A stretch of 20,000 nt of DNA. It comes from an uncultured virus (IMG/VR IMGVR_UViG_3300005142_000031). Lineage: Duplodnaviria; Heunggongvirae; Uroviricota; Caudoviricetes. The translations under genes and the position numbers were made by a program. Every line of letters starts with the position of its first letter. Position 1 is the stretch's first letter. Below the pieces are notes generated by a model that saw only the letters and a list, made by a program, of their open reading frames with translations, made no database searches and was not told the origin of the DNA. Of this stretch, positions 676 to 18,195 are shown piece by piece. Where the stretch lies: IMG/VR virus record IMGVR_UViG_3300005142_000031, one strand, 5' to 3'.

Positions 676-689
676 TGCAATCAATTGCA
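676..689. repeat. 14-bp palindrome copy 1, TGCAATCAATTGCA
   Basis: Read directly; intergenic between the terL stop and the SD of the next gene. Confidence 0.95.
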
Positions 690-691
690 AA

Positions 692-2641
692 CTAAGACGC
701 CAGGCGCTCCCGGCGCAGGCGCTCGGTGTAGCTCTGCGGGTCGTCCGGCGCCTCCCGGGCCGGGGTCTCGGTAGCATCGCTGCGGCGCAGGTAGTGTGGG
801 ATCTCGCTGATCGGCACGCCGTGGCCGACCCAGACATCGGTGGCCAGGGTCAGCCCGGAGATCACCCCCGCCACGGCGTCGGAGCAGTCCTTCGAGTAAT
901 TCACCGGGTGGTCGATCTTGCCGGTCTTGGGGTCGATCTCTAGCCGGACGAACTCGGTCTGAGCCTTGTCGTGCTCGGGCGCCTCGACCCGGCCGTCATA
1001 GAACGCCAGCTTGGCGATCTCGTAGTAGCGGTTCGACTCGTCGAGCGAGCGCAGCCCGGTCAGGAACCCCTTCTGGTTCAGCAGCTGCAGGGTGTCGGCG
1101 GACTGGTACTGGTCGGCCGAGGCCCAGCGCAGCGGCAGCCCGACCTCGCGCAGCTTGTAGAGCAGCGCCCGGATCTTGTCGTAGATGATCTCCGAGTTCT
1201 TCGGCGGTCGGACCTCGAGGATGGCGTCGAACCGGATCACCGGCAGCCACTCGTAGTGCCCCTCGGCCCGGGCGACCTTCTGGAACCGCGGCACATGGCC
1301 GATTGCCACACCGGTGGCGTCGCCGGTCTTCGACAGGTCGAGATGCACCCAGCGCGGCTCGTTCAGATTGACGAACCGCTTGGGGTAGATCAGCACCTGC
1401 GAGCTGGCGAAATCGGTGTCGGGCCGCGACAGCACCGAGGGTACCTTGCCGAAGCAGGCCGCCACCTTGTCCGGCTGCATCACGAACGGATAGAGCGCCA
1501 GGGTCGACACGCCGGCAATGTCGCGCAGCGAGGACAGCATGTCGCGCTCGAACTCGGTTCGATACTCCTCCGGCACCGCCATCACCAGGCGCTGGTCCTC
1601 TTCCGGGATCGTGGTCTCCTCGCCCGACTCCAGGATGCGCGGCCGGCGCGACACGTCGCCGACGAAAATGTGGAACCATTCGCCGGAGAAGGCGTCCGGC
1701 TTGACGTCCCAGACCCTCTTGTCGAAGACGAAGATCGAGGGGTCGTTCTTGGCCTCGTCGATCTTGATGTCGGTGAACTCGCCCGGGTAGCGCTTCGACG
1801 AGACCAGACAGAGCATGCCCGGCAGCTTGCCGCCCTGCATGAAGCGCGATTTCCGGCGCCGGACGATGGTGTTGTACATCTCGTTGGCCTGGTCGAACAC
1901 GCCGCCGTCGATCGCGTTCTTCGACTTCTCGACCACGGCCATGAAGTTGACCTCGTCGATGATGCCGCCGAACACGTTCTGGCCGATCGCCGCCGACACG
2001 TCGCCCGACAACGGCCGGACGATGATCCGCTTGGGGAACAGAAGCTCGCTCTCGATGTCCGGTCTATACGGGAACTTCGTCGAGAAGTAGGGCGACTGGC
2101 GCACCGCCGACTTGAACCGCTCGAACTCGACCGTCTTGGCCACCAGCTTGTTCAGCGACTGGAAGATGAACATGATCTCCGAGCTGGGATCGAGCCGGTA
2201 GGTGCGCTGCGGGCTGTGCAGACAGCTCAGCACGTAGAGCTGGTAAGCCGTCGTGTAGAGGGCCAGGGTCGTCTTGCCGGTGCCGATGCCGCCAGTGAGC
2301 ACCGCCTCGACATAGCGCCCGCCGTTCAGCTCAAACATGTCGTTGCGGATCGACGGATACAGCACCCCGGGCTGGTTCAGCATCTCGGTCGACTCGACGA
2401 AGGTCTGCGGGTCGACCGGCAGCCACCGGTAGTGCTTCTCCTCGCCCTTGAACTGCTTGAAATGGTTCAAGGCGCGCGACAGATAGGCGAGCCGCTCGCG
2501 CGAGTCCTCGTAGGTCTTCGAGAACCGCCAGACCACCTCGCCGGAGTAGCCCAGCCGGGCGCACAGCTTGAGCGCGGCCAGCAGGCGCTGCTCCAGGGTG
2601 AAGGCGTCACTGATCGACGGTGAGGTCAGTGACTTCGCCAT
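692..2641 (-). CDS. terL: Terminase large subunit
   Basis: Walker A LTGGIGTGKT, Walker B GGIIDEVNF, coupling-like LVSS, RNase H-like nuclease HLDLSKTGDATG and C-terminal KIDHP..SKDCSDA; 649 aa. Start approximate. Confidence 0.92.
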   Translation of the reverse strand: MAKSLTSPSISDAFTLEQRLLAALKLCARLGYSGEVVWRFSKTYEDSRERLAYLSRALNHFKQFKGEEKHYRWLPVDPQTFVESTEMLNQPGVLYPSIRNDMFELNGGRYVEAVLTGGIGTGKTTLALYTTAYQLYVLSCLHSPQRTYRLDPSSEIMFIFQSLNKLVAKTVEFERFKSAVRQSPYFSTKFPYRPDIESELLFPKRIIVRPLSGDVSAAIGQNVFGGIIDEVNFMAVVEKSKNAIDGGVFDQANEMYNTIVRRRKSRFMQGGKLPGMLCLVSSKRYPGEFTDIKIDEAKNDPSIFVFDKRVWDVKPDAFSGEWFHIFVGDVSRRPRILESGEETTIPEEDQRLVMAVPEEYRTEFERDMLSSLRDIAGVSTLALYPFVMQPDKVAACFGKVPSVLSRPDTDFASSQVLIYPKRFVNLNEPRWVHLDLSKTGDATGVAIGHVPRFQKVARAEGHYEWLPVIRFDAILEVRPPKNSEIIYDKIRALLYKLREVGLPLRWASADQYQSADTLQLLNQKGFLTGLRSLDESNRYYEIAKLAFYDGRVEAPEHDKAQTEFVRLEIDPKTGKIDHPVNYSKDCSDAVAGVISGLTLATDVWVGHGVPISEIPHYLRRSDATETPAREAPDDPQSYTERLRRERLAS

Positions 2642-3266
2642 CGATCACCTGCAGCAGGCCGTCGATCTCCTCGGTCCAGGAGAACTCCCGGACATTGCCG
2701 TCGGCATCCGTGACAGTACCGGTCATGTGCTTGGGCGCGCGCTTGATCGCTCCAGTCTCCAGCTGCAACTTGGCCAGGGTGCTGAGCATGTCGAACTGCA
2801 GGCGCATCTCGGACGAGACCTGCTGCATCAGCAGGGGCGATTCCTTCTCCCTCCTGTGCACCTTGTTCAGGCGCTCCTGCTGCATGTGGACCAGCGTCTC
2901 GATCTCGTCCATGGCATGCAGCCGGGCTTGCCAGGCCGGATCGGTCTCGCCGCGCACCTCGCGCACCACCTGGCGGAACTGGGCCTCGACAGGGTCGACC
3001 TCGCTCTCCTCCGCCGTCTCCTGGTCCTGGGCGTGGCGGCTGTCGAGCGGCACGATCTGGGTCTCGGCCTTGAGGTCGTCGCGCAGGCGGTACAGCGCCT
3101 TCTGCAGCGCCATCGGCTTGAGGTCCTCGCACTCGCCGCGCTTGTGCAGCATGCGCTGGATCGACGGCACCGACAGGCCCCGCTCGAGATCGTTGCAGAC
3201 CTCCTTGAAGCCCTCGACGCCGAGCCCCTGCAGCACACGGTACTTGGCTCGGTGCTTGATCGTCAT
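2607..3266 (-). CDS. Putative terminase small subunit
   Basis: 219 aa, immediately upstream of and overlapping terL; N-terminal HTH-like segment and coiled-coil-like middle. Positional inference. Confidence 0.55.
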   Translation of the reverse strand: MTIKHRAKYRVLQGLGVEGFKEVCNDLERGLSVPSIQRMLHKRGECEDLKPMALQKALYRLRDDLKAETQIVPLDSRHAQDQETAEESEVDPVEAQFRQVVREVRGETDPAWQARLHAMDEIETLVHMQQERLNKVHRREKESPLLMQQVSSEMRLQFDMLSTLAKLQLETGAIKRAPKHMTGTVTDADGNVREFSWTEEIDGLLQVIDGEVTDLTVDQ

Positions 3267-3267
3267 G

Positions 3268-4122
3268 TCACAGGCTCTTCACCATCTCGATCTGATCCTT
3301 GGTCGGCACCATCGACTCGGCCATCTCGATCTCGACCTGGGGCGTGGTCTCGACGATCCGGGCGACCACCTCGTCCAACTCGCCCTTTGCAATCAATTGC
3401 ATGAGGCCGCCGACCACGTCGTCGACGGTGCGGCTCTTCTGCCGGCACAGCTGGCAGACCGAGAGCACGGCATCGAAGCTCTTCTTGTTCTCGAGCCGCA
3501 GCCACACCGAGTCCTTGCCGCCATAATCGAGCACCATGTAGCCGAACGGCAGGCTGTCGCCGTAGACCGAGAACATCCGGTTCAGCAGCTTGGCCAGATC
3601 GTCGATGGTGCGCAGCTCCTTGGCCGCCTCCTTGAACTCCTTCTGCATGTCCTTGGGCAGCTGCTTCGCGGCGGCATCGATCAGCGCCTTGAACTCCTTC
3701 TCCTCGGCGAAGCCGAACATTTCCTGGAGCAGGTCGTCGCCGTACTTGCCGGCCACCTGGTTGTAGATGTCGACGAAGGCCTGCGGGTCCAGCTTGCCCT
3801 TGATGACGTTCATCCGGACCATCTGGAAGGTCTCGGCCTCCTCGTCGAAGTCCGGATCGGTGATCACCACCACCGGCACTTCCTCGAAGCCGAGGTAGCG
3901 CGCCGCCTCATAGCGGTGATGGCCGCCGACGATGCGATACTGGCCCTTCTGCTTGAGCGGCCGGACCAGGATCGGCTCGGTCAGTCCGGTCTGCTCCATG
4001 TTGTCGACCAGCAGGTCGAACGCCCGCCCCGACATCTTGTTCGGGTTCTTCGGGTTCGGCTGCAAGGCGTCGAGCGGCACCGTCTTGTACTCGTTCGACT
4101 TGGTCTTCTGGACCGCGGTCAT
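3268..4122 (-). CDS. ParB/Sulfiredoxin N-terminal domain protein
   Basis: VPLDALQPNPKNPNKM...GLTEPILVRP...YRIVGGHHRYEAARYLGFEEVPVVV is a ParBc-type motif set; uncharacterised C-terminal half. Confidence 0.88.
   Translation of the reverse strand: MTAVQKTKSNEYKTVPLDALQPNPKNPNKMSGRAFDLLVDNMEQTGLTEPILVRPLKQKGQYRIVGGHHRYEAARYLGFEEVPVVVITDPDFDEEAETFQMVRMNVIKGKLDPQAFVDIYNQVAGKYGDDLLQEMFGFAEEKEFKALIDAAAKQLPKDMQKEFKEAAKELRTIDDLAKLLNRMFSVYGDSLPFGYMVLDYGGKDSVWLRLENKKSFDAVLSVCQLCRQKSRTVDDVVGGLMQLIAKGELDEVVARIVETTPQVEIEMAESMVPTKDQIEMVKSL
3388..3401. repeat. 14-bp palindrome copy 2, TGCAATCAATTGCA (inside the ParB-like gene)
   Basis: Read directly; encodes (M)QLIA with AT-rich codons CAA TTG ATT GCA. Confidence 0.95.
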
Positions 4123-4685: not shown

Positions 4686-5093
4686 TCACCTTCCTTGGTT
4701 CCAGGCCGTGATGTCTTCCCAGTACAGTTCGCCCGGCCGCTCGCGCTTGTGCCAGCGGTAGCCCTCGCAGCTCTTCGGGGTGCGCACGCCGGAGAAGCGG
4801 TTGTCGAGGATCAGCACGCCGGCATCGGTATCGACCGACAGCACCGCGTGGTAGGTGCCGGTCTCGTCCCAGCACAGGGTGATCTTCAGGTCCTCGCGCG
4901 GATAGCCCATCTTCATCAGCCGGTGCAGCTTGGCCAGGGCATAGTCCTCGCAGTCGCCCTCCTCGTCCGGGATCTCCCAGAGATCGAGCCGGCCGTACTT
5001 CTCCGGATCGGGGACGTACTTGATCTGCGCGTTGATCGTGCGCTGCACCAGGCTGATCCGCGCAGCGTTCTCGTGGGTCAGCTGGATGGGCAT
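4686..5093 (-). CDS. Transglutaminase-like cysteine protease (BTLCP/LapG-like, peptidase C93), catalytic domain only
   Basis: INAQIKYVPDPEKYGRLDLW...GDCEDYALAK...HAVLSVDTDAGVLILDNR gives the Cys-His-Asp triad; ATG at 5093 with GGAGG SD; no signal peptide. Confidence 0.88.
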   Translation of the reverse strand: MPIQLTHENAARISLVQRTINAQIKYVPDPEKYGRLDLWEIPDEEGDCEDYALAKLHRLMKMGYPREDLKITLCWDETGTYHAVLSVDTDAGVLILDNRFSGVRTPKSCEGYRWHKRERPGELYWEDITAWNQGR

Positions 5094-5275
5094 CCCGGGT
5101 CCTCCGGATAGCGGCGGCAGTAATCCAGCCAGCCCGGCGGCGGCGCAACCAGGCCATCCGGAGCCGGCGGCAGGACGGGACGGCGCGGATCGGGAGCGCA
5201 GGACGCCAGAAGCGCTGCCAGCACCGTGATCAGGGCCCACAGCACCAAGGCTCGGCCGAGACAGCTGCGGTTCAT
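5078..5275 (-). CDS. Small Pro-rich lipoprotein resembling the BTLCP N-terminal segment
   Basis: Hydrophobic signal with lipobox LLASC, then PPPGWLDYCRRYPEDPGC; start overlaps the dNMP kinase stop. Confidence 0.7.
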   Translation of the reverse strand: MNRSCLGRALVLWALITVLAALLASCAPDPRRPVLPPAPDGLVAPPPGWLDYCRRYPEDPGCPSS

Positions 5276-5805
5276 CCCTCAACCTCCAGCTCGGCGATCT
5301 GGGCATCGAGCTGCGCATACAGCCGCTCCAGCGACCCCGCGTTGTCGATGGTCAGGTCGTGCGAAATCCGCTCCAGCTCGGTCTCCGAGCGGTGCTTCTC
5401 GTGGGTCGAGCGTCGGCCGGTCAGCCGCCACAGCTCGCCGCCGAGCTCTCGGATGCCTTCCGCCTCGCTGAAGAACCGCACGTCGTCGATCACCACGTCG
5501 TAGTCGACGCCGATCAGCGAGCGCTGCAGCAGGTGCACCCAGAACCGCTCGCCGATCAGGTCGCGGCCCCATTCGGTGCCCAGGGTCTGCATGGCGTAGG
5601 CCGGGGTCTGCCCCAGCAGCAGATCGCAGGGCTCGGTCTTGAGGTCCCCATTGAGCTGGCGCTCGTCGAGGCCGAGCGCGCGCAACATCGCCTTCAACGG
5701 CGTGGCGAAGGAGCGGCGCTCGAAACCGTGATGTCCCTGCAGGTGCAGCGCGGCGGTGGTCTTGCCGCTGCCGCGGGGGCCGATCAGGCCGATGATCATC
5801 CTCAC
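5272..5805 (-). CDS. Deoxynucleoside monophosphate kinase (phage dNMP kinase family)
   Basis: IIGLIGPRGSGKTT P-loop, SFATPLK, MQTLGTEWGR, VIDDVRFFSE, HRSE and IDNAGSLE motifs. Confidence 0.92.
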   Translation of the reverse strand: MRMIIGLIGPRGSGKTTAALHLQGHHGFERRSFATPLKAMLRALGLDERQLNGDLKTEPCDLLLGQTPAYAMQTLGTEWGRDLIGERFWVHLLQRSLIGVDYDVVIDDVRFFSEAEGIRELGGELWRLTGRRSTHEKHRSETELERISHDLTIDNAGSLERLYAQLDAQIAELEVEG

Positions 5806-5907: not shown

Positions 5908-7053
5908 TCAGTTGACGATCTTGCGCCGCGCGTAGTTCAGCGCGTCCAGGCTGTTGCGCATGGCCTCGACCATCGGCCACAGGCCCTCCCGAGTCGTGCC
6001 ATCGAAGTACAGCACGCAGGCCTCGCTCGATAGCTGGCGCAACAGTATCCCGCCCGCCCAGACCAGCCGCCGAGCCAGCAGGTCGCCCTCGGCTCGGAAC
6101 AGCAGGTCGCCCAGAAAGTCGACCCGCTGCTTGCCGTTCTCGAACGGCAGGTGCTGGATCAGCTTGGCGACCGGGGTCTCCATCTTGGCGAAATACGCCA
6201 GCGCGCGCTTGCCCTCCTGGGTATGCCAGTCGAACGTGTAGCTGGGATACGGGCCGATCATCTCGACCTCTGGCATCGGGTCGTCGTGCGTCTGGGGCCG
6301 GGGCCGGGTCCCGTCGCCCCACACCTGCTGCCAGAGCAGGGCGAAGGGCATCGACATCTGGTCGCATCCGATCGCGTTGGCCTGGCGCACCGTGTACAGG
6401 ACGTCGTCCGGCACGCCGAGCCCGCGCACTGCCTTGAACCAAGGGCCCACCCCGCCCTTGCGACTCGGAAACCCCGCCTTCGGATCTTCCGAGTCGCGCT
6501 GGCCACGCAGCAGGGTCAGCGCCATGATCCGCGTGGTCCGGGGCTGATGCTCGTCCAATGCAATCAATTGCAGTTCATGGTCGGACAGCTCGGCCATGTT
6601 CTGCCGGGCGGCATGCCAGTTCCGGTGCCAGTAGACCGCGACCGGCCCGTCGCAGGCGGTGCGGTCGCCCGGTGCCTCGCACAACCGCCTGACCAGGGCC
6701 ATCAGCCCCGGCTTCTCGCCGTGCTGCTCGCGCACCGCCTTGGCGCTGCAGAACCGCACCAGAGCCATCATGCCATCGAGATCGGCGATACCGACATCCT
6801 CGAAGCCGATAATGGTCAACCGGCGCCAGAGATAAGCCGGGTCGACCTGCCGCACGCCCTCCGCCATCTTCAGCGCGGTGTCGACATCGCCGCGGCGCAC
6901 CGCTTTCTGCAGAGCCGAGATCATCCGCCACTTGCGCTGCGGGTCCGACACGCGGACCGCCGGGGTCTCCGGGGCCTCGACGACCCACTGGCTGAGCAGG
7001 TCGTCGGCCTTCTGTTTCTGGGGCTTGTATCCCTGCACGTCCCTACCATCCAT
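5908..7053 (-). CDS. RarA/MgsA C-terminal-like helical protein without an AAA+ domain
   Basis: ISALQKAVRRGDVDTAL...AYLWRRLTIIGFEDVGIAD matches the RarA post-ATPase motif; no Walker A or B in the ORF. Confidence 0.7.
   Translation of the reverse strand: MDGRDVQGYKPQKQKADDLLSQWVVEAPETPAVRVSDPQRKWRMISALQKAVRRGDVDTALKMAEGVRQVDPAYLWRRLTIIGFEDVGIADLDGMMALVRFCSAKAVREQHGEKPGLMALVRRLCEAPGDRTACDGPVAVYWHRNWHAARQNMAELSDHELQLIALDEHQPRTTRIMALTLLRGQRDSEDPKAGFPSRKGGVGPWFKAVRGLGVPDDVLYTVRQANAIGCDQMSMPFALLWQQVWGDGTRPRPQTHDDPMPEVEMIGPYPSYTFDWHTQEGKRALAYFAKMETPVAKLIQHLPFENGKQRVDFLGDLLFRAEGDLLARRLVWAGGILLRQLSSEACVLYFDGTTREGLWPMVEAMRNSLDALNYARRKIVN
6559..6572. repeat. 14-bp palindrome copy 3, TGCAATCAATTGCA (inside the RarA-C-like gene)
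   Basis: Read directly; encodes (L)QLIA in the same frame as copy 2. Confidence 0.95.
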
Positions 7054-7074: not shown

Positions 7075-7102
7075 ATTCTACCAATTTAACCAGGCCAAGC
7101 AA
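7075..7102 (-). promoter_or_regulatory. Sigma70-like promoter TTGCTT-N16-TAGAAT
   Basis: AT-rich patch overlapping the glycosyltransferase stop, about 20 bp upstream of the 7053 start. Confidence 0.55.
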
Positions 7103-8594
7103 GATGGCCCGTGGCCGCACCGGCGTCGCGCAGGCCATGCCGGTACTTCAGCTTGAGTCGATACTCGTTCCAGGCAGTGCCCATCGAGTAGCTCGTGCGG
7201 TGCCGCGAGCGCTGATAGACGGTGTACAGGTGGCGCAGCGTGCCGGCCTCGTGCAGGCCCTTCAGCGCGTCGGCGAACAGGAAGTCGGGCTTGCCCCGGG
7301 CCCAGTCCAGCACGCCCGCGACCACCTCGTTCTCGTCGGACTCGCCGGTCCCGGTCCGACCGATCCGCTCGGCCAGGCCCTGCTCGAACCGGTCGAGGAA
7401 CTCGTCGAGCAGGAGCGGGAACCAGCGGTCGTTGCGCTCGGCCATCATCAGCGCGAACACGTCCTCGGACCACGCCCGGAACTTGGCATACATGCCCTCG
7501 TAGTCCTCGTAGAAGGCCTTGAGCACCGCATAGGCCTCGCTCTCGCCCGAGACCAGGAATGGGTAGTCCTTGCCGAAGGTCGCCTCGGACCAGGCCGCCC
7601 TGTTGAACACCCCCGGCACCCCCAGCATCACCGGTTCGATCAGGCTGAGCGGGTAATCCTCGTCGTCGGACAGGGCCAGGATCAGGTCGGCCTCTTCGCG
7701 CATCACCCGCCAGAACTCCTCGCGTGGACAGCGCTTCACCTCCAGGTGCTCATGCTTCTCGTAGTCCTCGGTGACCCGGCTGTTCGAGGTCAGCAGGAAC
7801 CGGATCGGCCGCCGGCCGCCCCAGTACACCCACTGCTTGAGGAACACCGACAGGGCGGGCTCCTTCGAGGTGCGCTCAGACTTGCGCCGCGACACCCGCT
7901 GGGTATAGGCCACCGCGAACGGCCGCTCATGGGCGGCGACCGCCTTGACCTGCTCGGCCGAACGGGTGTGCACCTGGTCGACCCGGATCGAGGACGCCGC
8001 CACCAGCCGATCGGACAGCTCGCGCACCCTGCTGGGCGGAAACCAGCTGCGGGCCTCCTTCAGGATCAGCCTGGTCGAGGCGAACGAGAAGATCAGCGAC
8101 AGGTCGGCGGCCATGTAGCCGGTCAGGGCGAGCAGATCGCCCGAGCGCGGGTCGGGCTGACACACCCTGTTCTTGAACGACATGATCGGGAACTCATCGT
8201 CGATCACGATCGCCTTGGTCCAGGCCCGGTTCGACCGGGACATCCACATCCTGAGCGTCGGCACTTGGGTCGAGCGGGCGGTGAGCAGCACGTCGAAATC
8301 CCACAGCGGCCCGTTGTAGGCGACGGCGTTCTCGATGTCGGCGTTGACCCGGGCGTACTCCTTCATCCGGTCGGGGTCGACCGACACCGGCACGTAGCGC
8401 ACCCGCGGGTCGCGGATCAGCCAGTCATGGTCGATCGTCCAGCTGCCGCCCGAGGTCTCCGGGTCGGGCAGCAGGTAGTACACGAACAGGTCGTCCCGCC
8501 GCTCCAGCAAGTAGCGGATCATGGTCTGCATCTTGAAGTGGCAGGAGCAGAGCTGCGGGTCATTGGTGCTGATCGGATCGACGAGCAGTCTCAT
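7086..8594 (-). CDS. GT-B fold glycosyltransferase (GT4-like), ~502 aa
   Basis: Start MRLLVDP at 8594 (ATGA overlap with the WbqC-like stop); ADLILALSDDEDYPLSLIEPVMLGVPGV contains the E-x7-E motif; basic C-terminal extension. Confidence 0.78.
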   Translation of the reverse strand: MRLLVDPISTNDPQLCSCHFKMQTMIRYLLERRDDLFVYYLLPDPETSGGSWTIDHDWLIRDPRVRYVPVSVDPDRMKEYARVNADIENAVAYNGPLWDFDVLLTARSTQVPTLRMWMSRSNRAWTKAIVIDDEFPIMSFKNRVCQPDPRSGDLLALTGYMAADLSLIFSFASTRLILKEARSWFPPSRVRELSDRLVAASSIRVDQVHTRSAEQVKAVAAHERPFAVAYTQRVSRRKSERTSKEPALSVFLKQWVYWGGRRPIRFLLTSNSRVTEDYEKHEHLEVKRCPREEFWRVMREEADLILALSDDEDYPLSLIEPVMLGVPGVFNRAAWSEATFGKDYPFLVSGESEAYAVLKAFYEDYEGMYAKFRAWSEDVFALMMAERNDRWFPLLLDEFLDRFEQGLAERIGRTGTGESDENEVVAGVLDWARGKPDFLFADALKGLHEAGTLRHLYTVYQRSRHRTSYSMGTAWNEYRLKLKYRHGLRDAGAATGHLAWPG

Positions 8595-9349
8595 GCCCAG
8601 GCACTCATGTCGACGGCAGTGCGATTGGCCGTACCGGTGCCCAGGTCGGCGCCGATAGCCTGCCGGCACCAATCCGGACCGGCAACGAACAGCGGGTCGA
8701 GAGCGGACAGCCGCAGCGTCGGCTCGGGGCAGAGCCGCGGGGCGTCCGGGGCCGGCCAGTTCTGGCCCCAAAGCCGGATACCCTTCGGCGCGAACCGGCC
8801 TTTCTCGAAATAGTTCTCGATCGACACCACTCCCTGGATGTAGTCCGTGCCGCCTGCCGCCTGGGTCAGTCGGGCCAGCCATTCAGTTGGCTCCTCGGGG
8901 CGCACCGGGACCAACTGCTTGGACTTGCGGATCACCGGATAAAGCCCGAGCTCGATCGCCAGCCAGTCCATGGTCGTCTCGGCCAGCGACGCCAGCGTCC
9001 AGGGTCCCTTGTCGACCAGATGGTCGAGCAGACCGTCGAACGATGTCTTGACCTCGCGGTAGCCGTCGCACTTGCCGTAGACGTGCTGGCAGCGCTTCTG
9101 CAGCTTGTCGGCCCACTGGTCGAGCTCGGCCACCGCGATCTCGTCCATCGGCCGGCGGTTCTTGTCGCGGCAGGGCACCGGGATCTTGTGCACGCCGTCC
9201 TTCTGGCCGAGCTGAAACCAGCTGTGCTCGGCCGAGCGGCTGTGCTGGGCCTCCTCCATGATCACCACGACGTGGCAACGGGCGAAGCGCTCGTACATGT
9301 AGAGCGGCGGGAACATCAGAGGCTGGGTCGCGGTCACCCAGATCGGCAT
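8591..9349 (-). CDS. WbqC-like protein (putative aminoacyl/glycyl transferase)
   Basis: ATQPLMFPPLYMYERFARCHVVVIMEEAQH, IPVP, HVYGK, TEWLARLTQAAGGTDYIQG and LSALDPLF follow the WbqC pattern; start MPIW after CCAAGGAGG. Confidence 0.8.
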   Translation of the reverse strand: MPIWVTATQPLMFPPLYMYERFARCHVVVIMEEAQHSRSAEHSWFQLGQKDGVHKIPVPCRDKNRRPMDEIAVAELDQWADKLQKRCQHVYGKCDGYREVKTSFDGLLDHLVDKGPWTLASLAETTMDWLAIELGLYPVIRKSKQLVPVRPEEPTEWLARLTQAAGGTDYIQGVVSIENYFEKGRFAPKGIRLWGQNWPAPDAPRLCPEPTLRLSALDPLFVAGPDWCRQAIGADLGTGTANRTAVDMSAWA

Positions 9350-9372
9350 GGTGCCCTCCTTGGCAGCTAGGA

Positions 9373-10833
9373 TTATTGTCCCTTCCACTGGACGATCCAG
9401 GACGGCGCCTTGACTCCGCCCTCGAGCCGCACGACGTAACCCAGCTCGGTCAGCGCCCAGGCCAGCCAGGGCACCGAGTAGCGGCCGAGCGTGCCACTGT
9501 CGCGCGCCGCGGCGACCGCCCGGACCACCTGGTCCAGGGTCTGGCCGTCGACCCGGCCGACGCCGGCGACCGCCTCCAGGGTGGCGCCCATCGACTTGAA
9601 CCGGCCGAGTTCCAGGCCCGGGTTCACCGTCCGCCAGGCGTCCTCCATGATCGCGCCGATACGGTCACCGACCGCGGCCGGGTCGCGCATATCGAGCTCG
9701 ATCAGGGCGTTGGCATAGGCGGTGTCGGCCGCCGCGTCGAAGTCGGCGAGCAGCGTCTTGAGCGCCGCCATGATCGCCTCGACGTCGTAGCTGTCGACCG
9801 AGAACGGGCTGTTCACCTCACCGGCCGAATACCGGGTCGCCTTGTGCAGGTGCGGACTGCCCGAGCACACCGCCTCGATGCTCGACATGTACAGGCCGTT
9901 GTAGTCGGTCAGGTAGGCGGACAGCTCGCAGTCGTAGAGCGCGTCCATCACCTCGGCGCGCGGGCGCTGGTGCAGCACCTCGATCGAGTCGCCGGCCGCG
10001 TCGATCACGTTGCGCGCCCAGTCGTCGAGCTTGGACTGGGTTGCCAGCACGGTCCGGATCGGCGTGCCATTGCAGCGCAGGGCGTGCACCGCCCGGATCA
10101 GCGGCTCGGTCTGCTCGCCGGCCTCCTCCTCGCTGCGCCCGAACGAGCGCGCCACGAACACCCGGAAGTCGGCGCCGCGGCGCTGCCGGCGCACCGGGTC
10201 GCGCGGCGGCCGGTAGGGCCGGTACACCCGGTGCACGTTGGCCATGGCCTGGCGGGCGTTGCTGGGCGACAGCAGGGCGCGGATGTTCTGGTGCAGCACG
10301 GTCACTTCGTTGGGGACATGCAGCACCGCCGGGCTCTCCAGCGTCGACAGCACCTGGAGGTGCATCAGCTCGCGGATGAAGTCTGGGTTCGAGCCGCCTC
10401 GGCCGGCGCGGGACTTGCCGTCCTCATAGCCGAACACGCAGTCGAAGAAGGTGACCACCGGCACGTTCAGCCGAGTATGGCCCTTCCTGTAGAGGAACCG
10501 CCGGATCGCCAGTGCCGCCTCGGGCGTGCCCAGGAACACCACGTCGTATGGCAGGTCGGTCAGCTCAGGCATGAGAAGCCGGGCCAGCTCGGGCGGAATC
10601 AGGCCGCCGGTGAAGTTCAGGTCCTGCGGATAGTCGACCGGCCGCACCGTCAGGTTCGGATGGCCACCGAACCACCGGGTGTGGTCGTACTTCCAGTCCC
10701 TGCCCGAGGGCATGGCGACCACCACCGCGTGTCCGGCGGCGGCCAGCGCCCCGGCGAGCTCGGACTGGTGGACGATGCCGGAGGACTGCGCCTCGTCCTT
10801 GAAGTAGAGGTAGGGCAACATCAGCACGCGCAT
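9373..10833 (-). CDS. Second GT-B fold glycosyltransferase, ~486 aa
   Basis: MRVLML...SGIVHQSELAGALAAAGHAVVV N-terminus; PRAEVMDALYDCELSAYLTDYNGLYMSSIEAVCSGSP (degenerate N-x7-E motif). Confidence 0.78.
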   Translation of the reverse strand: MRVLMLPYLYFKDEAQSSGIVHQSELAGALAAAGHAVVVAMPSGRDWKYDHTRWFGGHPNLTVRPVDYPQDLNFTGGLIPPELARLLMPELTDLPYDVVFLGTPEAALAIRRFLYRKGHTRLNVPVVTFFDCVFGYEDGKSRAGRGGSNPDFIRELMHLQVLSTLESPAVLHVPNEVTVLHQNIRALLSPSNARQAMANVHRVYRPYRPPRDPVRRQRRGADFRVFVARSFGRSEEEAGEQTEPLIRAVHALRCNGTPIRTVLATQSKLDDWARNVIDAAGDSIEVLHQRPRAEVMDALYDCELSAYLTDYNGLYMSSIEAVCSGSPHLHKATRYSAGEVNSPFSVDSYDVEAIMAALKTLLADFDAAADTAYANALIELDMRDPAAVGDRIGAIMEDAWRTVNPGLELGRFKSMGATLEAVAGVGRVDGQTLDQVVRAVAAARDSGTLGRYSVPWLAWALTELGYVVRLEGGVKAPSWIVQWKGQ

Positions 10834-10849
10834 CGCCAACGGGCCTCCG

Positions 10850-10863
10850 TGCAATCGATTGCA
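10850..10863. repeat. 14-bp palindrome copy 4, TGCAATCGATTGCA
   Basis: Perfect palindrome, intergenic, abutting the GGAGG SD of the glycosyltransferase. Confidence 0.95.
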
Positions 10864-10869
10864 GGCGGA

Positions 10870-11433
10870 TCAGCGGGCGACGGTGACGACGCCGAGCAGG
10901 TAGCTGGAGTCCCCGGGGACCGGGCTGACAGCGACTGGGGCGTCGAAGGCCTCGCACAAGGACCGCACCGAGGTCGCCTGCAGCCGGCCGCCGTAGTGCA
11001 GCGGGTCGAGCCAGGAGACGACGACAAAGCGCTCGGCGAGGCTGCGCAGGGTCTGGCAGAACCGGGTGCGATCGGCCGGATCGACAGTTGGCAGCACGCC
11101 GGCGGCGACCACCACGTCGAAGCGCCGCGGCGTCTCCTGGGCGAAGCCGTCCAGGCCGCTCTTGAGGATCTCCAGCTTCGGATGCCGGGCCCGGGCGATG
11201 TTCCAAATCCAGTCGATCTGCTCGATGCCGGTATAGGCGACCGCCGGCGAGATGCAGTCGGCCAGGTCGCCGTAGCCACAACCCACGTCGAGCACCGAGA
11301 TTGGGTCGAGCGACGATACCAGCTCCGAGGTGGCGACCAGCCGGGCGTCATGCAGGTGGTCCGGGGTCAGCAGCCCCTCCGGGGTGCCACGCTTGTCGTC
11401 GGGCTGGCTCTCATAGATCGAGACCGCATCCAT
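10870..11433 (-). CDS. Class I SAM-dependent methyltransferase (small-molecule/sugar type)
   Basis: SVLDVGCGYGDL motif I, YTGIE, FDVVVAAGVL; no DPPY/NPPY or PCQ motif of DNA methyltransferases; start MDAVS after GGAGG. Confidence 0.85.
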   Translation of the reverse strand: MDAVSIYESQPDDKRGTPEGLLTPDHLHDARLVATSELVSSLDPISVLDVGCGYGDLADCISPAVAYTGIEQIDWIWNIARARHPKLEILKSGLDGFAQETPRRFDVVVAAGVLPTVDPADRTRFCQTLRSLAERFVVVSWLDPLHYGGRLQATSVRSLCEAFDAPVAVSPVPGDSSYLLGVVTVAR

Positions 11434-11452
11434 CCTGGACTGTCCTCCCTGG

Positions 11453-12133
11453 TCATCGCACCATCTTGCGCAGAACGTGGAACAGCTCGGCATAACCCAG
11501 CCCCGACTCGAGGCCGCGCATCCGCGCCATCGCCCGGGCCGCCTCGAACGACCAGCAGTGACCGTTCTGGCGGATCTGGGTCCGGTAGCAGCCGAGCATG
11601 GCGATCTTGGCGTCGAGGCCGGTCTCGCCGATTTCGACATACATGCCGCCCTTGCCGGCGTCGGCCGAGGACCCCGCGCCCCAGGCGGTTGCCGGGTATT
11701 CGTAGGCGGCGATCAGCTGGACGCCCCGGGTCAGGGCCGAGGGACGGGTCGCCGCCAGACAGGCGCGGTAGGCGATCTCGTGGTCCTGGTGGCTGGACGG
11801 CAGCGGAATCAGGATCTCGGTCGGGTCGACGGTGCGGATCTCGTCCTCGACGAACGACACGATGTCGGCGATCGGCAGGGTGTCGAGCAACCGGTCCTTG
11901 TCGTAGAAGCCGATCCGGCAACTGCCGCCGACCTGGTCCATCGACCGGCGCAGCTCCTGGACCCGCTCCTGCCAGGTGACCTCGCGGCCGAGATGGCCGA
12001 AGAACACGTTGCCGACCGCCAGCACCGAGACATGAACCTTGCCGCCGTCCGCCGCCACCCGGTGCATGTAGCCGCCGCAGCCGAGCTCCGCGTCGTCGGC
12101 GTGCGGGGCGACCACCATCAAGCGCTTCTCCAC
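11453..12133 (-). CDS. PIG-L/LmbE family N-acetylglucosamine deacetylase
   Basis: VVAPHADDAELGCGG and SSHQDH metal/catalytic motifs, AYE, KIAMLGCYRTQ, RG...YAELF; GTG start after AAGGAGG. Confidence 0.92.
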   Translation of the reverse strand: MEKRLMVVAPHADDAELGCGGYMHRVAADGGKVHVSVLAVGNVFFGHLGREVTWQERVQELRRSMDQVGGSCRIGFYDKDRLLDTLPIADIVSFVEDEIRTVDPTEILIPLPSSHQDHEIAYRACLAATRPSALTRGVQLIAAYEYPATAWGAGSSADAGKGGMYVEIGETGLDAKIAMLGCYRTQIRQNGHCWSFEAARAMARMRGLESGLGYAELFHVLRKMVR

Positions 12134-12244: not shown

Positions 12245-12258
12245 TGCAATCGATTGCA
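12245..12258. repeat. 14-bp palindrome copy 5, TGCAATCGATTGCA
   Basis: Perfect palindrome, intergenic, upstream of the PIG-L gene and adjacent to the hairpin. Confidence 0.95.
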
Positions 12259-12752: not shown

Positions 12753-13263
12753 TCAGAACGGGTTGGTGCCCCCGCCATCGCCGATGACGAACACATCGAC
12801 GCAATCCGCCAGCAGGTTGGCGTTGGCCATCGTGCCGTGCAGGCTGATCACAAAGTCCGTCCCCCGCGGCAGGTCGACCGTCATCCGCCAGGACCGGGCG
12901 AAGGACTCGAAGAAGGCCTCATCCCATCCGAGGTAGATGTTGATCGAGGTCTCCGTGATCGCCGAAGCCGTGTGCGCCTGGGAGTAGCCGCCGACGGTGA
13001 TAACCACCCGACCCACGTCCCCCTGGGGCAGCGACCAGGCCGGATCGGTGAGTGCGAGTTGCAGGCCGGTCGAGAACACCGCCAGGACGACCTCTCGGCC
13101 CGTCTGCGGGTACTACGTCATCATCGAGCAGAAGACCTCATCCTGCAGGTTACGGTAGGCCTCGACCCACCACACCCCGCCGGCGCTGTCTGCCCACAAC
13201 GTCTCCGCCTGGACGGCCGGGGCCGTCAGAACTGCGGCGGTCGCCAGCAAGCAGTCTCGACAT
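12753..13263 (-). pseudogene. Disrupted exported protein gene (signal peptide ... C-terminal TNPF)
   Basis: One frame reads LLATAAVLTAPAVQA-ETLWADSAGGVWWVEAYRNLQDEVFCSMMT*YPQTGREVVLAVFSTGLQL...GGTNPF with an in-frame TAG at 13113-13115; the ATG at 13263 (MSRLL) is one base out of frame, or TTG at 13250 is the start. Confidence 0.65.
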
Positions 13264-13711
13264 CCCCGAAGAACCCGTTGGCGCCGCAAGTATGGCAGGT
13301 TGCCGTGTCGGTCCAGTTAACGACGCAGAACTTCTCGGCACTGCTATCCCATCGCACCTCGGCCGGCCGGGTGATGTCGGTCGATCCGCATTCCGGGCAG
13401 TGCAGGGTGATCTTGGGCGTGCCGACCGCCGACTCCGGCTCGGGGGCGGAGGCCGGATCGTGCGACCCCTCCCAGGTCAGGGCGGCATAGAGCCGACCTG
13501 CCAGATCCTCGACCCAGCCCTCCAAGTCGGGAGACAGGTCGAACAGCGCGGCGATCAGCCGGGTGCGGTCCTTTGGGTCGAGCTCGAAGATGATGCTCGA
13601 CAATCCGGACCTGAGCACGATCCGCTTGTTCGGATACCACAAGCCATCGGTCGACACCAGCAACTCCGTGCCGTCTTTGGTGGCGTCGTTGAACGGCCCG
13701 TATTCTGTCAT
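13226..13711 (-). CDS. Paralog-family member F, fused to a C-terminal zinc ribbon (CPEC...CHTC)
   Basis: Start MTEYG at 13711 (ATGA overlap); contains DRTRLIAALFDLSPDLEGWVEDLAGRL. Confidence 0.78.
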   Translation of the reverse strand: MTEYGPFNDATKDGTELLVSTDGLWYPNKRIVLRSGLSSIIFELDPKDRTRLIAALFDLSPDLEGWVEDLAGRLYAALTWEGSHDPASAPEPESAVGTPKITLHCPECGSTDITRPAEVRWDSSAEKFCVVNWTDTATCHTCGANGFFGDVETACWRPPQF

Positions 13712-13953
13712 GGCATGTCCTCCATGGCGGCGACCAGCTTGGTGGCGAGCTGCTCCCGCCAGTCGGGGTGCTCCAGGCTGACCCCGTAGAGCGCGGCGAC
13801 CAGGGTGAGCTTGCCGGACGGTTTCAGCACCAATCCGTTCATCGGGAGTAGCTCGGCCGAACCGTCCGACAGGGTGCGCAGCTTCATATGCCCGTTGCAG
13901 ATGTCGGCGCCGCACTCGCAGTTGACGATGACTTCAGTGTCAACCAAGACCAT
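13708..13953 (-). CDS. Paralog-family member E (81 aa)
   Basis: MVLVDTEVIVNCECGADIC...KLTLVAALYGVSLEHPDWREQLATKL; start overlaps the upstream stop. Confidence 0.8.
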   Translation of the reverse strand: MVLVDTEVIVNCECGADICNGHMKLRTLSDGSAELLPMNGLVLKPSGKLTLVAALYGVSLEHPDWREQLATKLVAAMEDMP

Positions 13954-14207
13954 CACGCACCCTCCAATGCCGCGACCAGACGCTCGGCCAGGACCTCTCG
14001 GAAATTCGGGGTGTCTTGCGGCACGCCATAGAGGGCGGCGACCAGTCGCAGCCTCTCCTCCTCGTGCAGGGTGACGTTCACCGACGCGGCGTTCTGGCCG
14101 TAGACGTCGAGGGTTACAGCCCCCACTCCGGATCTCGCCGTCACGATGGTAATGCCGTAGTCGCACTTTGGATCGCCGCAGGCGCAGTCGATCTGGAAGA
14201 AGGACAT
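13953..14207 (-). CDS. Paralog-family member D (84 aa)
   Basis: MSFFQIDCACGDPKC...ERLRLVAALYGVPQDTPNFREVLAERL. Confidence 0.8.
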   Translation of the reverse strand: MSFFQIDCACGDPKCDYGITIVTARSGVGAVTLDVYGQNAASVNVTLHEEERLRLVAALYGVPQDTPNFREVLAERLVAALEGA

Positions 14208-14464
14208 CACTCGGCCTCCTCGATCAGCGTGACCAGCCTTGCGGCCAGGCGCTCCTTCCAACCTTCCTGCTCGGAGTCGACGCAGGCGATCGCCGCGATG
14301 ACGTGGATGATGTCCTCGGTCCTGAGATCGATCGCCGGCATATCGAATTCGGGGTCGGGCTTGATGTCGAGCTGGCAGTAGTTCTTTGTCCTGAACACCT
14401 GCAGCGTGGTCTTGTCGTTGGGGTCTTCGTCCTTGAAGAGCCGGTTCACGGCGAGATTGGTCAT
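14207..14464 (-). CDS. Paralog-family member C (85 aa)
   Basis: MTNLAVNRLF...DIIHVIAAIACVDSEQEGWKERLAARL. Confidence 0.8.
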   Translation of the reverse strand: MTNLAVNRLFKDEDPNDKTTLQVFRTKNYCQLDIKPDPEFDMPAIDLRTEDIIHVIAAIACVDSEQEGWKERLAARLVTLIEEAE

Positions 14465-14676
14465 AGCCGCCCCCACTGCTCGAACAGCTCGTCCTCGATG
14501 CGGGTGCGCTCCTCGCGGGTCAGCTGGCCGGGGTCGACCTTGGCGCCGGTCGGCCAGAACACGGTAGTGCCCCAGAACTCCGCCGTCGCCGGGTCGCGGG
14601 TCGGCTCGAAGGTGCCGCGGGCGATCACGGGCATTCCGTCGCCGATCCTGGTGTCGATGAAGACTTCGTCGAGCAT
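14461..14676 (-). CDS. Hypothetical protein (71 aa), lacking the shared paralog motif
   Basis: ATG after CCCAAGGATGGG; stop overlaps the next start; preceded by a promoter-like element. Confidence 0.68.
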   Translation of the reverse strand: MLDEVFIDTRIGDGMPVIARGTFEPTRDPATAEFWGTTVFWPTGAKVDPGQLTREERTRIEDELFEQWGRL

Positions 14677-14715
14677 CTTGCGGTCCCATCCTTGGGTTGC
14701 TGAAGTCCTGTAGTC

Positions 14716-14743
14716 ATTCTGACACAGGACGAGACAGGGTCAA
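14716..14743 (-). promoter_or_regulatory. Sigma70-like promoter TTGACC-N16-CAGAAT
   Basis: Intergenic; spacer shares GTCCTGTG with the promoter at 123-150; inverted repeat GTCCTGT...ACAGGAC (14705-14730) covers the -10. Confidence 0.55.
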
Positions 14744-14985
14744 GAGAAAGGATTGGCCTCCAGGTCCTGGACCAGCCAGTGGGCGAGCCGCTCCTTCCAG
14801 CCTGTTTCGGTGATGTCGACACCACAGAGGCCGGCAACCAAGGTCAGGCGATCCTCCCAGGCGAGGTCGAACGACGGGAGGTCACCGACGAACAGCAGCA
14901 CCTCGTGCTGTGTGTCGTCCCAGACCACTTTCATCTGAAAGGACGGCTCGCCGTTGTCGTGGAGCGTCGTCTTCAAATGGGCCAT
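14740..14985 (-). CDS. Paralog-family member B (81 aa)
   Basis: DRLTLVAGLCGVDITETGWKERLAHWL. Confidence 0.8.
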   Translation of the reverse strand: MAHLKTTLHDNGEPSFQMKVVWDDTQHEVLLFVGDLPSFDLAWEDRLTLVAGLCGVDITETGWKERLAHWLVQDLEANPFS

Positions 14986-14986
14986 G

Positions 14987-15253
14987 TCACCCCTCTCCCA
15001 TGTCGTCGAGCAGGGCCTTGGCGAGCTGCTCGCGCCAACCCGGAGCTCCGTGCTGGATGCCGTACAGAGCCGCGATCATCGTGATCCGATCCGAGTCGGC
15101 GAGATGCATGATGACGTCATAATCCGCAAAGTCAGGATCGTCCGGCTCCGTCGCCCTGATCGTGGTGTAGTGGGTCGACGGCTCCCAGCGGGTAAGGTGC
15201 AGGGACGTTCCGTTGCCGCTGACGCAGAAAAAGCCGGCCTTGAGCTTCTCCAT
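14987..15253 (-). CDS. Paralog-family member A (88 aa)
   Basis: DRITMIAALYGIQHGAPGWREQLAKAL. Confidence 0.8.
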   Translation of the reverse strand: MEKLKAGFFCVSGNGTSLHLTRWEPSTHYTTIRATEPDDPDFADYDVIMHLADSDRITMIAALYGIQHGAPGWREQLAKALLDDMGEG

Positions 15254-15547: not shown

Positions 15548-15561
15548 TGCAATCGATTGCA
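15548..15561. repeat. 14-bp palindrome copy 6, TGCAATCGATTGCA
   Basis: Perfect palindrome directly abutting AAGGAGG upstream of the double-HTH gene. Confidence 0.95.
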
Positions 15562-18181: not shown

Positions 18182-18195
18182 TGCAATCGATTGCA
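18182..18195. repeat. 14-bp palindrome copy 7, TGCAATCGATTGCA
   Basis: Perfect palindrome between the stop at 18196 and the SD of the 18164 gene. Confidence 0.95.

Follow-up and report, generated by a model that had tools for sequence, protein, structure and literature searches.

DNA is the likeliest target of a five-gene glyco-tailoring cassette in the 20,000-nucleotide stretch analysed here (the window), a reading to which we give about an even chance and in which the modification would necessarily be partial. The initial annotation had already leaned towards DNA, and its choice gains support from a winged-helix-like domain in the core glycosyltransferase (GT-II) and a strict linkage to a ParB gene. 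In the pathway that we favour, with confidence a shade short of even, a late, packaging-linked set of enzymes would decorate a fraction of the phage DNA, after its replication, with a cationic amino sugar. The phage is a DLP3/RcZahn-like siphophage from a salt lake, represented by a partial genome (contig of 42.8 kb).

The cassette and its neighbours

Five adjoining genes occupy positions 7086 to 12133, all on the minus strand, with gaps or overlaps of at most 36 bases between neighbours and with gene starts set by RBS and homology. The initial annotation had given the same five contiguous genes, which are confirmed, and its enzyme assignments are upheld by Pfam, PHROG and structure matches. 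The PIG-L/LmbE-family de-N-acetylase (11453 to 12133, 226 residues from a GTG start; PF02585, E 6e-14, above cut-off) has HxDD and DH metal motifs that are invariant across 11 phage orthologues, and the nearest solved relatives of its profile are diacetylchitobiose deacetylase and BshB1. It is followed by a class I SAM-dependent methyltransferase of small-molecule type (10870 to 11433, 187 residues; PF13649, E 2e-6), which matches no DNA-methyltransferase family in profile scans and has orthologues in locus L006 (E 1.5e-22) and in the Vibrio phages V-YDF132 (E 2e-13) and VH2_2019 (E 1e-11).

The accessory GT-B glycosyltransferase, GT-I (9373 to 10833, 486 residues; GT4-type Pfam E 1e-5, below cut-off), is by its alignment with the GT-II family a distant paralogue of GT-II (hhalign 96.6%, E 5e-10, 325 columns). 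Only three non-self homologues are found among 8000 candidates, with none in GenBank phages and no locus among the viral contigs searched; GT-I is, as far as these sequences indicate, nearly private to this phage. A winged helix suggested by eye in GT-I is rejected, as its C-terminus fails to align with that of GT-II (0.2%). Next comes a WbqC-like protein, a putative aminoacyl transferase (8591 to 9349, 252 residues; PF08889, E 1e-20), 56% identical to its L006 orthologue. A profile search of structures gives no solved relative for it, BshC included. A glycyl-transferase role has been proposed for WbqC in the O-antigen literature. Two WbqC-like genes are kept in the sister phages R21Y and SIO-2, both of which are without GT-II and ParB, so the action of WbqC on the sugar is unproven. 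The last gene encodes GT-II, a GT4-like GT-B enzyme and the conserved core of the cassette (7086 to 8594, 502 residues; PHROG glycosyltransferase, E 3e-5; no Pfam match).

None of the five proteins has a clear membrane segment, as had been noted initially: the highest 19-residue hydropathy among them is 1.62, in a stretch of GT-II that the model shows as a helix of the soluble Rossmann domain. Also borne out is the absence of flippase, polymerase and nucleotide-sugar synthesis genes among the 17 window proteins scanned, and the same scan gives no bactoprenol glycosyltransferase or periplasmic transferase of gtrABC-type or O-antigen loci. These results bear on lysogenic conversion of the host LPS or EPS. 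WbqC, DegT and dehydratase genes are common in surface-glycan loci and occur here or in relatives, the relatives can be temperate (DLP3, DLP5), and one of them (G001) has an integrase. A host-surface (LPS) conversion is suggested for DLP3 gp102 in PMC7326821. We nevertheless hold this explanation to be highly unlikely: the cassette is without a membrane component and lies inside a terminase operon, V-YDF132, described as lytic, has it too, and the three matches in bacterial genome assemblies (two on contigs of only 2.8 kb) adjoin WbqC-like, MgsA_C-like or terminase genes and not LPS loci.

The dNMP kinase, ParB and terminase genes lie downstream of the cassette where they had been placed, all on the minus strand: the kinase at 5272 to 5805 (PF21448, E 7e-13; phrog_139, E 2e-42), a ParB-N protein with an intact GGHHR motif at 3268 to 4122 (284 residues; PF02195, E 5e-13; phrog_26387, E 8e-86), a probable terminase small subunit at 2607 to 3266 and the terminase large subunit at 692 to 2641 (phrog_2, E 1e-5; E 3e-194 against the annotated DLP3 terminase). 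The small subunit, without a family match in Pfam and PHROG profile scans, is assigned by position; its homologues immediately precede TerL in 13 of 16 loci. A promoter and terminator scan gives a chance-level result only.

The earlier reading overlooked the extra C-terminal domain of GT-II and the MgsA_C-like gene at 5908 to 7053 (minus strand). The latter encodes a stand-alone MgsA/RarA C-terminal-like helical protein (381 residues; PF12002, E 0.002) that lacks the ATPase domain and whose profile finds structures of the RarA C-terminus (E 5e-13). It has the invariant motifs S-x3-K-x2-RRG, ED and D-x-H-x3-G, is found in 16 of 22 GT-II loci, and falls in the ESM Atlas into unnamed clusters only, many from giant viruses.

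The kinase is not constant. Its slot holds a P-loop kinase-like ORF in L008 (assigned by eye) and a dCTP-deaminase-like ORF in L010, L014 and L016 (identified from similar annotated genes in Vibrio phages), and a kinase or deaminase-like gene thus often lies between GT-II and ParB. This arrangement would suit a pre-replicative route, where the sugar is placed on a mononucleotide that the dNMP kinase and a phage family-A polymerase then incorporate; the phage does encode its own DNA polymerase, of Pfam family A in the relatives. Such a route is quite improbable in our estimate, because the kinase is missing in most GT-II loci, the ThyX proteins of the relatives come from different subfamilies (19-43% identity), genes of a packaging operon are expected to act late, and full base replacement should relax the avoidance of restriction sites.

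GT-II and its tie to ParB

The AlphaFold2 model of GT-II (pLDDT 92) has a GT-B fold, with the two Rossmann domains and the ExxxxxxxE-type nucleotide-sugar motif of a GT4 enzyme. The second Glu of the motif (E320) is invariant in 94 sequences and the first is variable, and the N-terminal, acceptor-side domain has the conserved basic residues R76, R107, K127, K141 and R182. The best structural matches of the model are BshA (VIA-align Z 22.0, rmsd 4.4, 342 aligned), PglA and MshA. The comparison with phage DNA glycosyltransferases that the initial annotation called for gives Z 19.0 for the HY126 glycosyltransferase and Z 14.7 for the T4 alpha-glucosyltransferase. The modelled fold is nearer to BshA/PglA-type GT4 enzymes (Z ~22) and to the HY126 enzyme than to the T4 enzyme, a resemblance that does not identify the acceptor; proven phage DNA arabinosyltransferases likewise have BshA/MshA-like proteins as their best structural matches (PMC13326640).

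The same matches raise the question of an intracellular product, either a small molecule or a host or phage protein modified during infection. Bacillithiol and mycothiol are made by a GT4 enzyme, a PIG-L enzyme and the addition of an amino acid, and aminoglycosides by a glycosyltransferase, deacetylase, aminotransferase and methyltransferase. That BshA, PglA and MshA lead the list for GT-II, that BshB1 is among the nearest solved relatives of PIG-L and that WbqC-like pairs are kept without GT-II would all fit. We consider the explanation unlikely, however, since no scaffold-synthesis gene is found near any examined locus, PIG-L scores far below the cut-off of the BshB1 model (50.8 against 182.5 bits), WbqC has no solved relative, BshC included, and neither ParB nor a winged helix is evidently needed for such a product.

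The C-terminal domain of GT-II (about residues 411-502; 7089 to 7364, minus strand), modelled alone with a pLDDT of 76, gives a VIA-align list dominated by winged-helix domains: the cullin WHB (Z 6.4, rmsd 3.3, 76 aligned; best Z), PadR (Z 6.3, rmsd 2.3, 64 aligned), linker histones, forkhead and Z-alpha. With the best Z below 8, the assignment is a fold-level one only. Foldseek gives no match for the domain at E<=0.001 and the ESM Atlas search no usable one. The top matches are protein-binding cullin domains.

Clustered by 50% identity, the GT-II family falls into ~400 groups (399 representatives with E<=1e-10), and ParB lies within ~6 kb of GT-II in 21 of 22 loci. All 15 GenBank records that match GT-II are among the 22 that match ParB; among the other seven, a family glycosyltransferase is present in four RcF phages and two Vibrio phages, PG28 being left out. 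Both genes are missing from R21Y and SIO-2, with three controls detected. By these sequence searches the family appears confined to phage contexts, in line with the initial annotation, and tied to one ParB subfamily. The relatives that carry it are DLP3 (gp96-104), DLP5, RcZahn (gp141-146), RHph_Y1_11, KarBoss, V-YDF132, VH2_2019, RcTiptonus (gp21; first taken as a control without the glycosyltransferase) and Kelleziovirus; VH2_2019, V-YDF132, RcZahn, RcTiptonus and DLP3 are cultured. A genome-wide palindrome considered as a parS-like loading site for ParB and GT-II is rejected, being present in R21Y and SIO-2, which have neither gene, and lacking in Kitkat, where the two genes occur.

The tailoring set upstream of GT-II varies among the 22 loci. 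PIG-L is present in 16; WbqC-like, aminotransferase, dehydratase, methyltransferase and second glycosyltransferase genes come and go, and several loci carry two to three glycosyltransferases. V-YDF132, VH2_2019 and G001 share the PIG-L/methyltransferase/WbqC variant. The relatives also encode UDP-GlcNAc 4,6-dehydratase-like, UDP-GlcNAc 2-epimerase and DegT aminotransferase genes, which support the HexNAc-type donor proposed at the outset.

The acceptor and the DNA evidence

In the cited literature, phage DNA is glycosylated on a base that has first been primed (5hmC, 5hmU or 5hoC). The initial annotation held that the acceptor-making enzyme is not visible in the window, which stands, and proposed a search of the rest of the genome; in the eight complete relatives the enzyme is not found. 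No TET/JBP enzyme (PF12851; control Altadena detected at E 2e-5, below cut-off) and no ThyA-type enzyme (PF00303; controls T4 gp42 and YuA gp17 detected) is present in any of the eight. As direct queries, the Altadena JBP, T4 gp42 and YuA gp17 give no match in 6812 ORFs, the contig of the window included for the JBP. Very divergent 5mYOX enzymes may escape the Pfam model, and for the phage of the window itself the 42.8 kb contig covers only about half of the genome. In G001 (114 ORFs) and DLP3 (123 ORFs), Pfam scans give ThyX only, and ThyX is rejected as a priming enzyme since the types in the relatives are non-orthologous. A DNA target therefore requires new chemistry.

We turn to the restriction sites. 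The observed/expected ratio for palindromes is 0.56 in DLP3, 0.35 in RcZahn, 0.53 in G001, 0.65 in G002 and 0.43 in RcTiptonus, against 0.94 in T4; in these five relatives 19-26 of 36-60 testable palindromes are depleted, compared with 11/39 in Kitkat, 0/27 in T4 and 2/29 in the window's own contig, which shows little avoidance. Many 6-bp palindromes are lost in most relatives, as in unprotected phages and unlike T4, and the anti-restriction mark that had been proposed is not supported as a blanket one. Hydroxymethylase-bearing coliphages show no restriction-site avoidance (PMC6286503). The sisters R21Y and SIO-2, which lack the glycosyltransferase, have ratios (0.70 and 0.73) no lower than those of cassette carriers, and the cassette thus gives no sign of a protective effect. 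YuA, which has an annotated hydroxymethyltransferase, avoids palindromes as strongly (0.45). Since YuA DNA is thymidine-hypermodified, avoidance is compatible with a partial mark. Local protection near the genome-wide palindromes is rejected, the surviving depleted sites being no closer than random in 6/6 genomes (p 0.14-0.95).

DLP3 DNA has been published as resistant to 15 enzymes, of which only 5 have sites and 10 have none, which makes the resistance weaker than it appears. It is uncut by EcoRI (7 sites), NdeI (4), ClaI (18) and SmaI (68), part of which host methylation could explain. DLP5 DNA is cut by 4/36 enzymes. (The 'DLP3' with arabinosylated cytosine in NAR 2026 is an Acinetobacter Straboviridae namesake, irrelevant to Stenotrophomonas DLP3.)

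The same data bear on glycosylation of the virion, where GT-II and GT-I would furnish capsid or tail proteins with a short tailored glycan. Virion glycosylation of this kind is reported for some mycobacteriophages. A position in the late packaging operon, two to three glycosyltransferases at several loci and the avoidance of restriction sites are all expected on this explanation, which needs no priming enzyme and so fits the absence in 8/8 genomes; the DLP3 epimerase gp97 is detected in virions by mass spectrometry, though its authors note non-structural carry-over. It leaves unexplained the GT-II/ParB linkage, the winged-helix-like domain and the resistance of DLP3 DNA to four enzymes with several sites each, and 92% of the DLP3 major capsid protein is covered by peptides in a search without glycan modifications. 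We rate it as rather unlikely.

A DNA target is thus supported by the winged-helix-like domain, the basic acceptor-side residues, the tie to ParB, the DLP3 and DLP5 digests and the unmodified-peptide coverage of the capsid. For phage DNA dioxygenases that act after replication, ParB-N is an activator (PMC13229309); the BshA/MshA-like best structural matches of proven phage DNA arabinosyltransferases also count in favour, and phage Altadena has a remote PIG-L homologue (E 9e-4) inside its ParB/Tet-JBP/GT cluster. The target is weakened by the cullin-topped winged-helix list at Z <8, the WbqC-like pair without GT-II, the palindrome avoidance in most relatives and the Altadena queries without a match, its ParB and GT giving none to the ParB and GT-II families of the cassette.

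For partial DNA glycosylation we infer the following steps. GT-II would use host UDP-HexNAc, a donor that in many relatives may first be altered by a phage-encoded dehydratase or aminotransferase, and would transfer the sugar to DNA at some sites only, assisted by the winged-helix-like domain, with ParB as a loader or activator. The acceptor would not be 5hmC or 5hmU from a known enzyme; a heteroatom of a canonical base or a phosphate could serve instead, or else a base on which some unrecognised enzyme does the priming, and the MgsA_C-like protein is the best candidate accessory. PIG-L would then free the 2-amine of the transferred sugar, WbqC may aminoacylate and/or the methyltransferase methylate the product, and GT-I may add a second sugar. 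The mark could give partial protection from nucleases and/or neutralise charge for packaging. A bolder form is possible and rather doubtful: a widespread priming-free hypermodification, in which a ParB-activated winged-helix GT-B enzyme would directly glycosylate a canonical base or the backbone, and interchangeable tailoring genes would leave the packaged DNA with sugars that are aminoglycoside-like or aminoacylated cations.

Known systems and what the cassette would mean

The closest known arrangement is the 5mYOX cluster, in which a 5mYOX (TET/JBP), with or without a C5-methyltransferase, is joined by a glycosyltransferase and ParB (Pyle et al., bioRxiv 2023.12.21.572611; O'Toole et al., PMC13229309). 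Soluble glycosyltransferases, ParB-N, sugar-tailoring genes and terminase neighbours are common to both, as is a PIG-L homologue in the case of Altadena. The cassette differs in that its relatives (eight complete genomes) have no 5mYOX, its glycosyltransferase and ParB are of other subfamilies, and it adds the winged-helix-like domain and the MgsA_C-like gene. With T-even and RB69/HY126-type cytosine glycosylation (PMC13326640) it shares GT-B enzymes, paralogous glycosyltransferases in series and a nearby dNMP kinase, whereas its relatives have no ThyA-family synthase, carry it in a siphophage packaging operon and, unlike T4, mostly avoid restriction sites strongly.

The likeness to bacillithiol and mycothiol synthesis (BshA/B/C, MshA/B/C) lies in a GT4-like glycosyltransferase, PIG-L and a putative amino-acid-adding step. 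Identity is ~12%, however, the BshB models stay far below cut-off, the curated BshA and BshC models match none of GT-I, GT-II or WbqC, no relation of WbqC to BshC or MshC is found, and the cassette has the ParB linkage and the C-terminal domain. To mycobacteriophage virion glycosylation, for which we know of no ParB linkage, it is likened by its gene context, having several soluble glycosyltransferases near packaging genes; the mycobacteriophages reportedly have several near packaging or structural genes (Freeman and colleagues, 2023). Delepquintavirus and relatives have the same GT-II family and the same ParB and terminase order. In the available portions of their descriptions the genes are annotated one by one (moron genes, LPS modification, 'Erm', 'endolysin') and not as a pathway, and we find no description of the cassette as one pathway in the literature searched, which covered work outside subscription papers.

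A family of ~400 clusters with ParB and packaging context and no priming enzyme points to a new acceptor chemistry or an unrecognised priming enzyme. If the virion were the target, the cassette would exemplify tailored virion glycans in a Proteobacterial setting. If partial DNA glycosylation is true, it would account for the reported DLP3 and DLP5 DNA modification, of undetermined nature, and genes that at present go by the labels 'Erm', 'endolysin' or LPS-modifying would take on a new reading.

The cassette and its genomic setting

The window covers positions 161-20160 of a virus contig that is 42,791 bases long. A 200-kb metagenome contig (L037) contains an identical copy, and the runs listed are labelled hypersaline lake metagenome. 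The five contiguous genes reported in the initial annotation are exactly as described: PIG-L (12133-11453), a methyltransferase (11433-10870), GT-I (10833-9373), WbqC (9349-8591) and GT-II (8594-7086) are tightly packed on the minus strand. The enzymes also appear to be soluble, with a clear membrane segment in none of the five. The metal ligands of PIG-L are conserved, and GT-I is a rare, distant paralogue of GT-II. Past GT-II the order is MgsA_C-like gene, dNMP kinase, C93 peptidase, ParB, probable small terminase and large terminase. The MgsA_C-like gene (5908-7053) encodes a protein that stands alone, resembles the C-terminal part of MgsA/RarA and carries a conserved D-x-H-x3-G motif; many giant-virus clusters are among its Atlas look-alikes; the peptidase (4686-5318) is a BTLCP C93 cysteine peptidase, overlapped by a small ORF that is lipoprotein-like by eye.

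Upstream of the cassette lies the only likely plus-strand gene of the region (12753-13079, 108 aa, GC3 0.89), for which family-profile scans give no family match. It is followed by a run of about five short genes (13226-15253) that by eye are paralogue-like and share a similar terminal stretch, 'rl.l.aaL.g.......w.e.La..l...le', and by a GmrSD_C/HNH-type nuclease domain protein (18443-19384, E 3e-14). Homology to annotated relatives also names head and tail genes in the contig, a DNA polymerase, a PPDK-like protein and a pair of tyrosine-phosphatase-like proteins; the contig stops inside the tape measure gene. Just beyond the window (contig G000, C1:20067-25350), the PPDK-like protein, the two phosphatases (DSP-type) and a 355-aa unknown protein form a block between terminase and polymerase that is conserved in all five genomes compared and looks like a phage phospho-signalling module.

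The GT-II family and its loci

By tblastn, GT-II matches 15 GenBank records, those of Stenotrophomonas phages DLP3, DLP5 and Summit, RcZahn, two Rhizobium phages, KarBoss, JP1 and Arthrobacter phages. Profile searches add RcTiptonus gp21 (E 2e-36) and, at E about 1e-21, two Vibrio phages, V-YDF132 and VH2_2019, and the family reaches 399 representatives at E<=1e-10. VH2_2019, whose host is Vibrio natriegens, has the PIG-L/MTase/WbqC form of the cassette, and RcZahn has the form with an aminotransferase. We compare 22 distinct loci with usable flanks, leaving out duplicates (L011, L045, L037) and 2.8-kb contigs (L040, L042). ParB lies within about 6 kb of GT-II in 21 of them, and the stretch of the sole exception (L012) begins within the terminase. 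PIG-L and the MgsA_C-like gene are each found in 16 of the 22, a DegT aminotransferase in 10 (by Pfam in DLP3, by clustering in the others), and a WbqC-like gene also in 10 (four by direct match, six assigned through an N-terminal motif together with alignment and clustering). Amine-exposing or amine-adding enzymes are predicted in most variant cassettes. Further loci carry a gene for a PseB-like UDP-GlcNAc 4,6-dehydratase or a UDP-GlcNAc 2-epimerase, which supports HexNAc donors. At the RcTiptonus locus, GT-II and ParB are accompanied by a small gene; no tailoring genes are seen next to them.

Two side observations concern neighbouring genes. DLP3 gp99 (L001:13646-14326), a methyltransferase annotated 'Erm', is flanked by the aminotransferase and GT-II, and its orthologues occupy the same slot in RcZahn, KarBoss and two further loci (L014, L016); it has no Pfam or NCBIfam match, and sugar tailoring seems at least as likely a role as rRNA methylation. 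A carbamoyltransferase gene (L022:3426-5138) lies among the tail genes of G001, the closest relative.

Does the cassette instead alter the surface of the host? The initial annotation had allowed for closest homologs in host LPS/EPS loci; the three matches in bacterial assemblies are all in a phage-like context, and we regard host-surface conversion as very unlikely indeed.

In the sister Vibrio phages R21Y and SIO-2, searches of the complete records detect three controls but neither GT-II nor ParB, and neither PIG-L nor the MgsA_C-like gene is found in the 50 kb scanned. Each has a pair of WbqC-like genes directly upstream of the small terminase (R21Y gp91-92, L049:24729-26281; SIO-2, L050:28699-30187), and WbqC may act without the sugar. 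Both also contain a 14-base palindrome, consensus TGCAATYRATTGCA, that has seven copies in the window (676-689, 3388-3401, 6559-6572, 10850-10863, 12245-12258, 15548-15561 and 18182-18195) versus none in 200 shuffles. The copies are frequently within genes and evenly spaced, at about 3.2 kb for the 13 copies in the contig (CV 0.34 versus 0.90 at random) and roughly every 2-3 kb genome-wide. At one mismatch or fewer there are 13 copies in the contig, 34 in DLP3, 34 in G001, 38 in a second relative (G002), 19 in RcZahn and 22 in 50 kb of RcTiptonus, and none in Kitkat, YuA, DLP4, DLP1 or T4; variants occur in Vibrio, Rhizobium and other members, and the palindrome recurs across the Proteobacterial members of the phage group. 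Its presence in R21Y and SIO-2 indicates that it is lineage-wide and independent of the cassette.

Acceptor, priming and restriction

The GT-II model, a confident one (pLDDT 92), has a GT4-like GT-B fold. In the suggested structure comparison, BshA (Z 22.0), PglA (21.8) and WbnH (21.5) score highest, ahead of the HY126 phage glycosyltransferase (Z 19.0) and T4 alpha-glucosyltransferase (Z 14.7). The same kind of best matches is described for proven phage DNA arabinosyltransferases (PMC13326640) and for GT-B DNA enzymes in the Pyle preprint (bioRxiv 2023.12.21.572611); the fold therefore does not name the acceptor, and a small-molecule or protein target, for which the higher-scoring matches leave room, is in our estimate quite unlikely. 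Residues about 411-502 make up a domain of their own which, when folded alone, has winged-helix domains throughout its match list, with a best Z of 6.4 that is under the tool's trust level and protein-binding cullin domains in the top rows. The N-terminal domain holds several near-invariant Arg and Lys residues.

The next question is whether the genome encodes, outside the window, the enzyme that creates the acceptor base. Of the types that the initial annotation had in mind (hydroxymethylase, TET/JBP, thymidylate synthase), ThyA-type and TET/JBP enzymes were not found in any of the eight complete relatives searched (G001, G002, DLP3, RcZahn, RHph_Y1_11, V-YDF132, RcTiptonus and Kitkat): PF00303 and PF12851 match in none, with T4 gp42 and YuA gp17 detected as controls and Altadena JBP detected weakly, and these three proteins as direct queries find no match in 6812 ORFs. 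This places the system outside the known primed-base families; the cassette may work like them. Pfam scans of 114 G001 ORFs and 123 DLP3 ORFs give ThyX only, plus a dCTP deaminase in G001. Phage T-dioxygenases are activated by ParB-N proteins (PMC13229309). Arthrobacter phage Altadena has a cluster of ParB, Tet/JBP, glycosyltransferase and PIG-L genes (L048:3716-7091) that includes a remote homologue of the window's PIG-L, making this phage a cultured candidate for a de-N-acetylated sugar on primed DNA. In Mycobacterium phage Rich (L047:1-5350), a PIG-L gene, three unknown genes and a kinase lie directly upstream of the terminase.

DLP3 DNA is resistant to 15 of 15 restriction enzymes (PMC7326821), and DLP5 DNA is cut by 4 of 36, where 36 counts the enzymes tried regardless of site presence (PMC5834331); a review table restates these results (PMC8228603). 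The DLP3 genome contains sites for only five of the 15 enzymes (EcoRI 7, XbaI 1, SmaI 68, ClaI 18, NdeI 4) and none for the other ten, and resistance to those five may come from the cassette or from host methylation. The available portions of the papers on RcZahn, V-YDF132 and R21Y (PMC8601537, PMC9413028, PMC10671443) contain no restriction data. Six-base palindromes are depleted in the relatives (observed/expected 0.35-0.73), unlike 50 kb of T4 (0.94) and DLP4 (0.90); the window's contig stands at 0.83, and the sisters without GT-II, at 0.70 and 0.73, show no stronger depletion. YuA, which carries a thymidine modification, shows avoidance as strong as that in the relatives (0.45). Coliphages bearing hydroxymethylase show no site avoidance (PMC6286503). 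Taken with the depletion in the relatives, this makes the proposed anti-restriction mark unlikely in a T4-like blanket form, while the avoidance in YuA makes a partial mark possible in GT-II phages.

A tentative pathway

In the most likely scheme, GT-II, aided by ParB, would add HexNAc to phage DNA after its replication, at some positions; PIG-L would free the amine of the transferred sugar, WbqC and the methyltransferase would cap it, and GT-I would extend the sugar. We hold the placement of HexNAc on DNA by GT-II, with tailoring to follow, at a little under an even chance; a nucleotide-level route is judged very improbable. Glycosylation of the virion is an unlikely destination for the sugar; against a glycosylated capsid, unmodified peptides span 92% of the DLP3 major capsid protein. 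The module is not described as a pathway in the main texts of the largely open-access literature searched. Amines on DNA would fit a role in shielding it from nucleases or in neutralising charge during packaging, a purpose that we infer. The cassette is a real, widespread variant of predicted phage glyco-modification, and it is testable on cultured phages.
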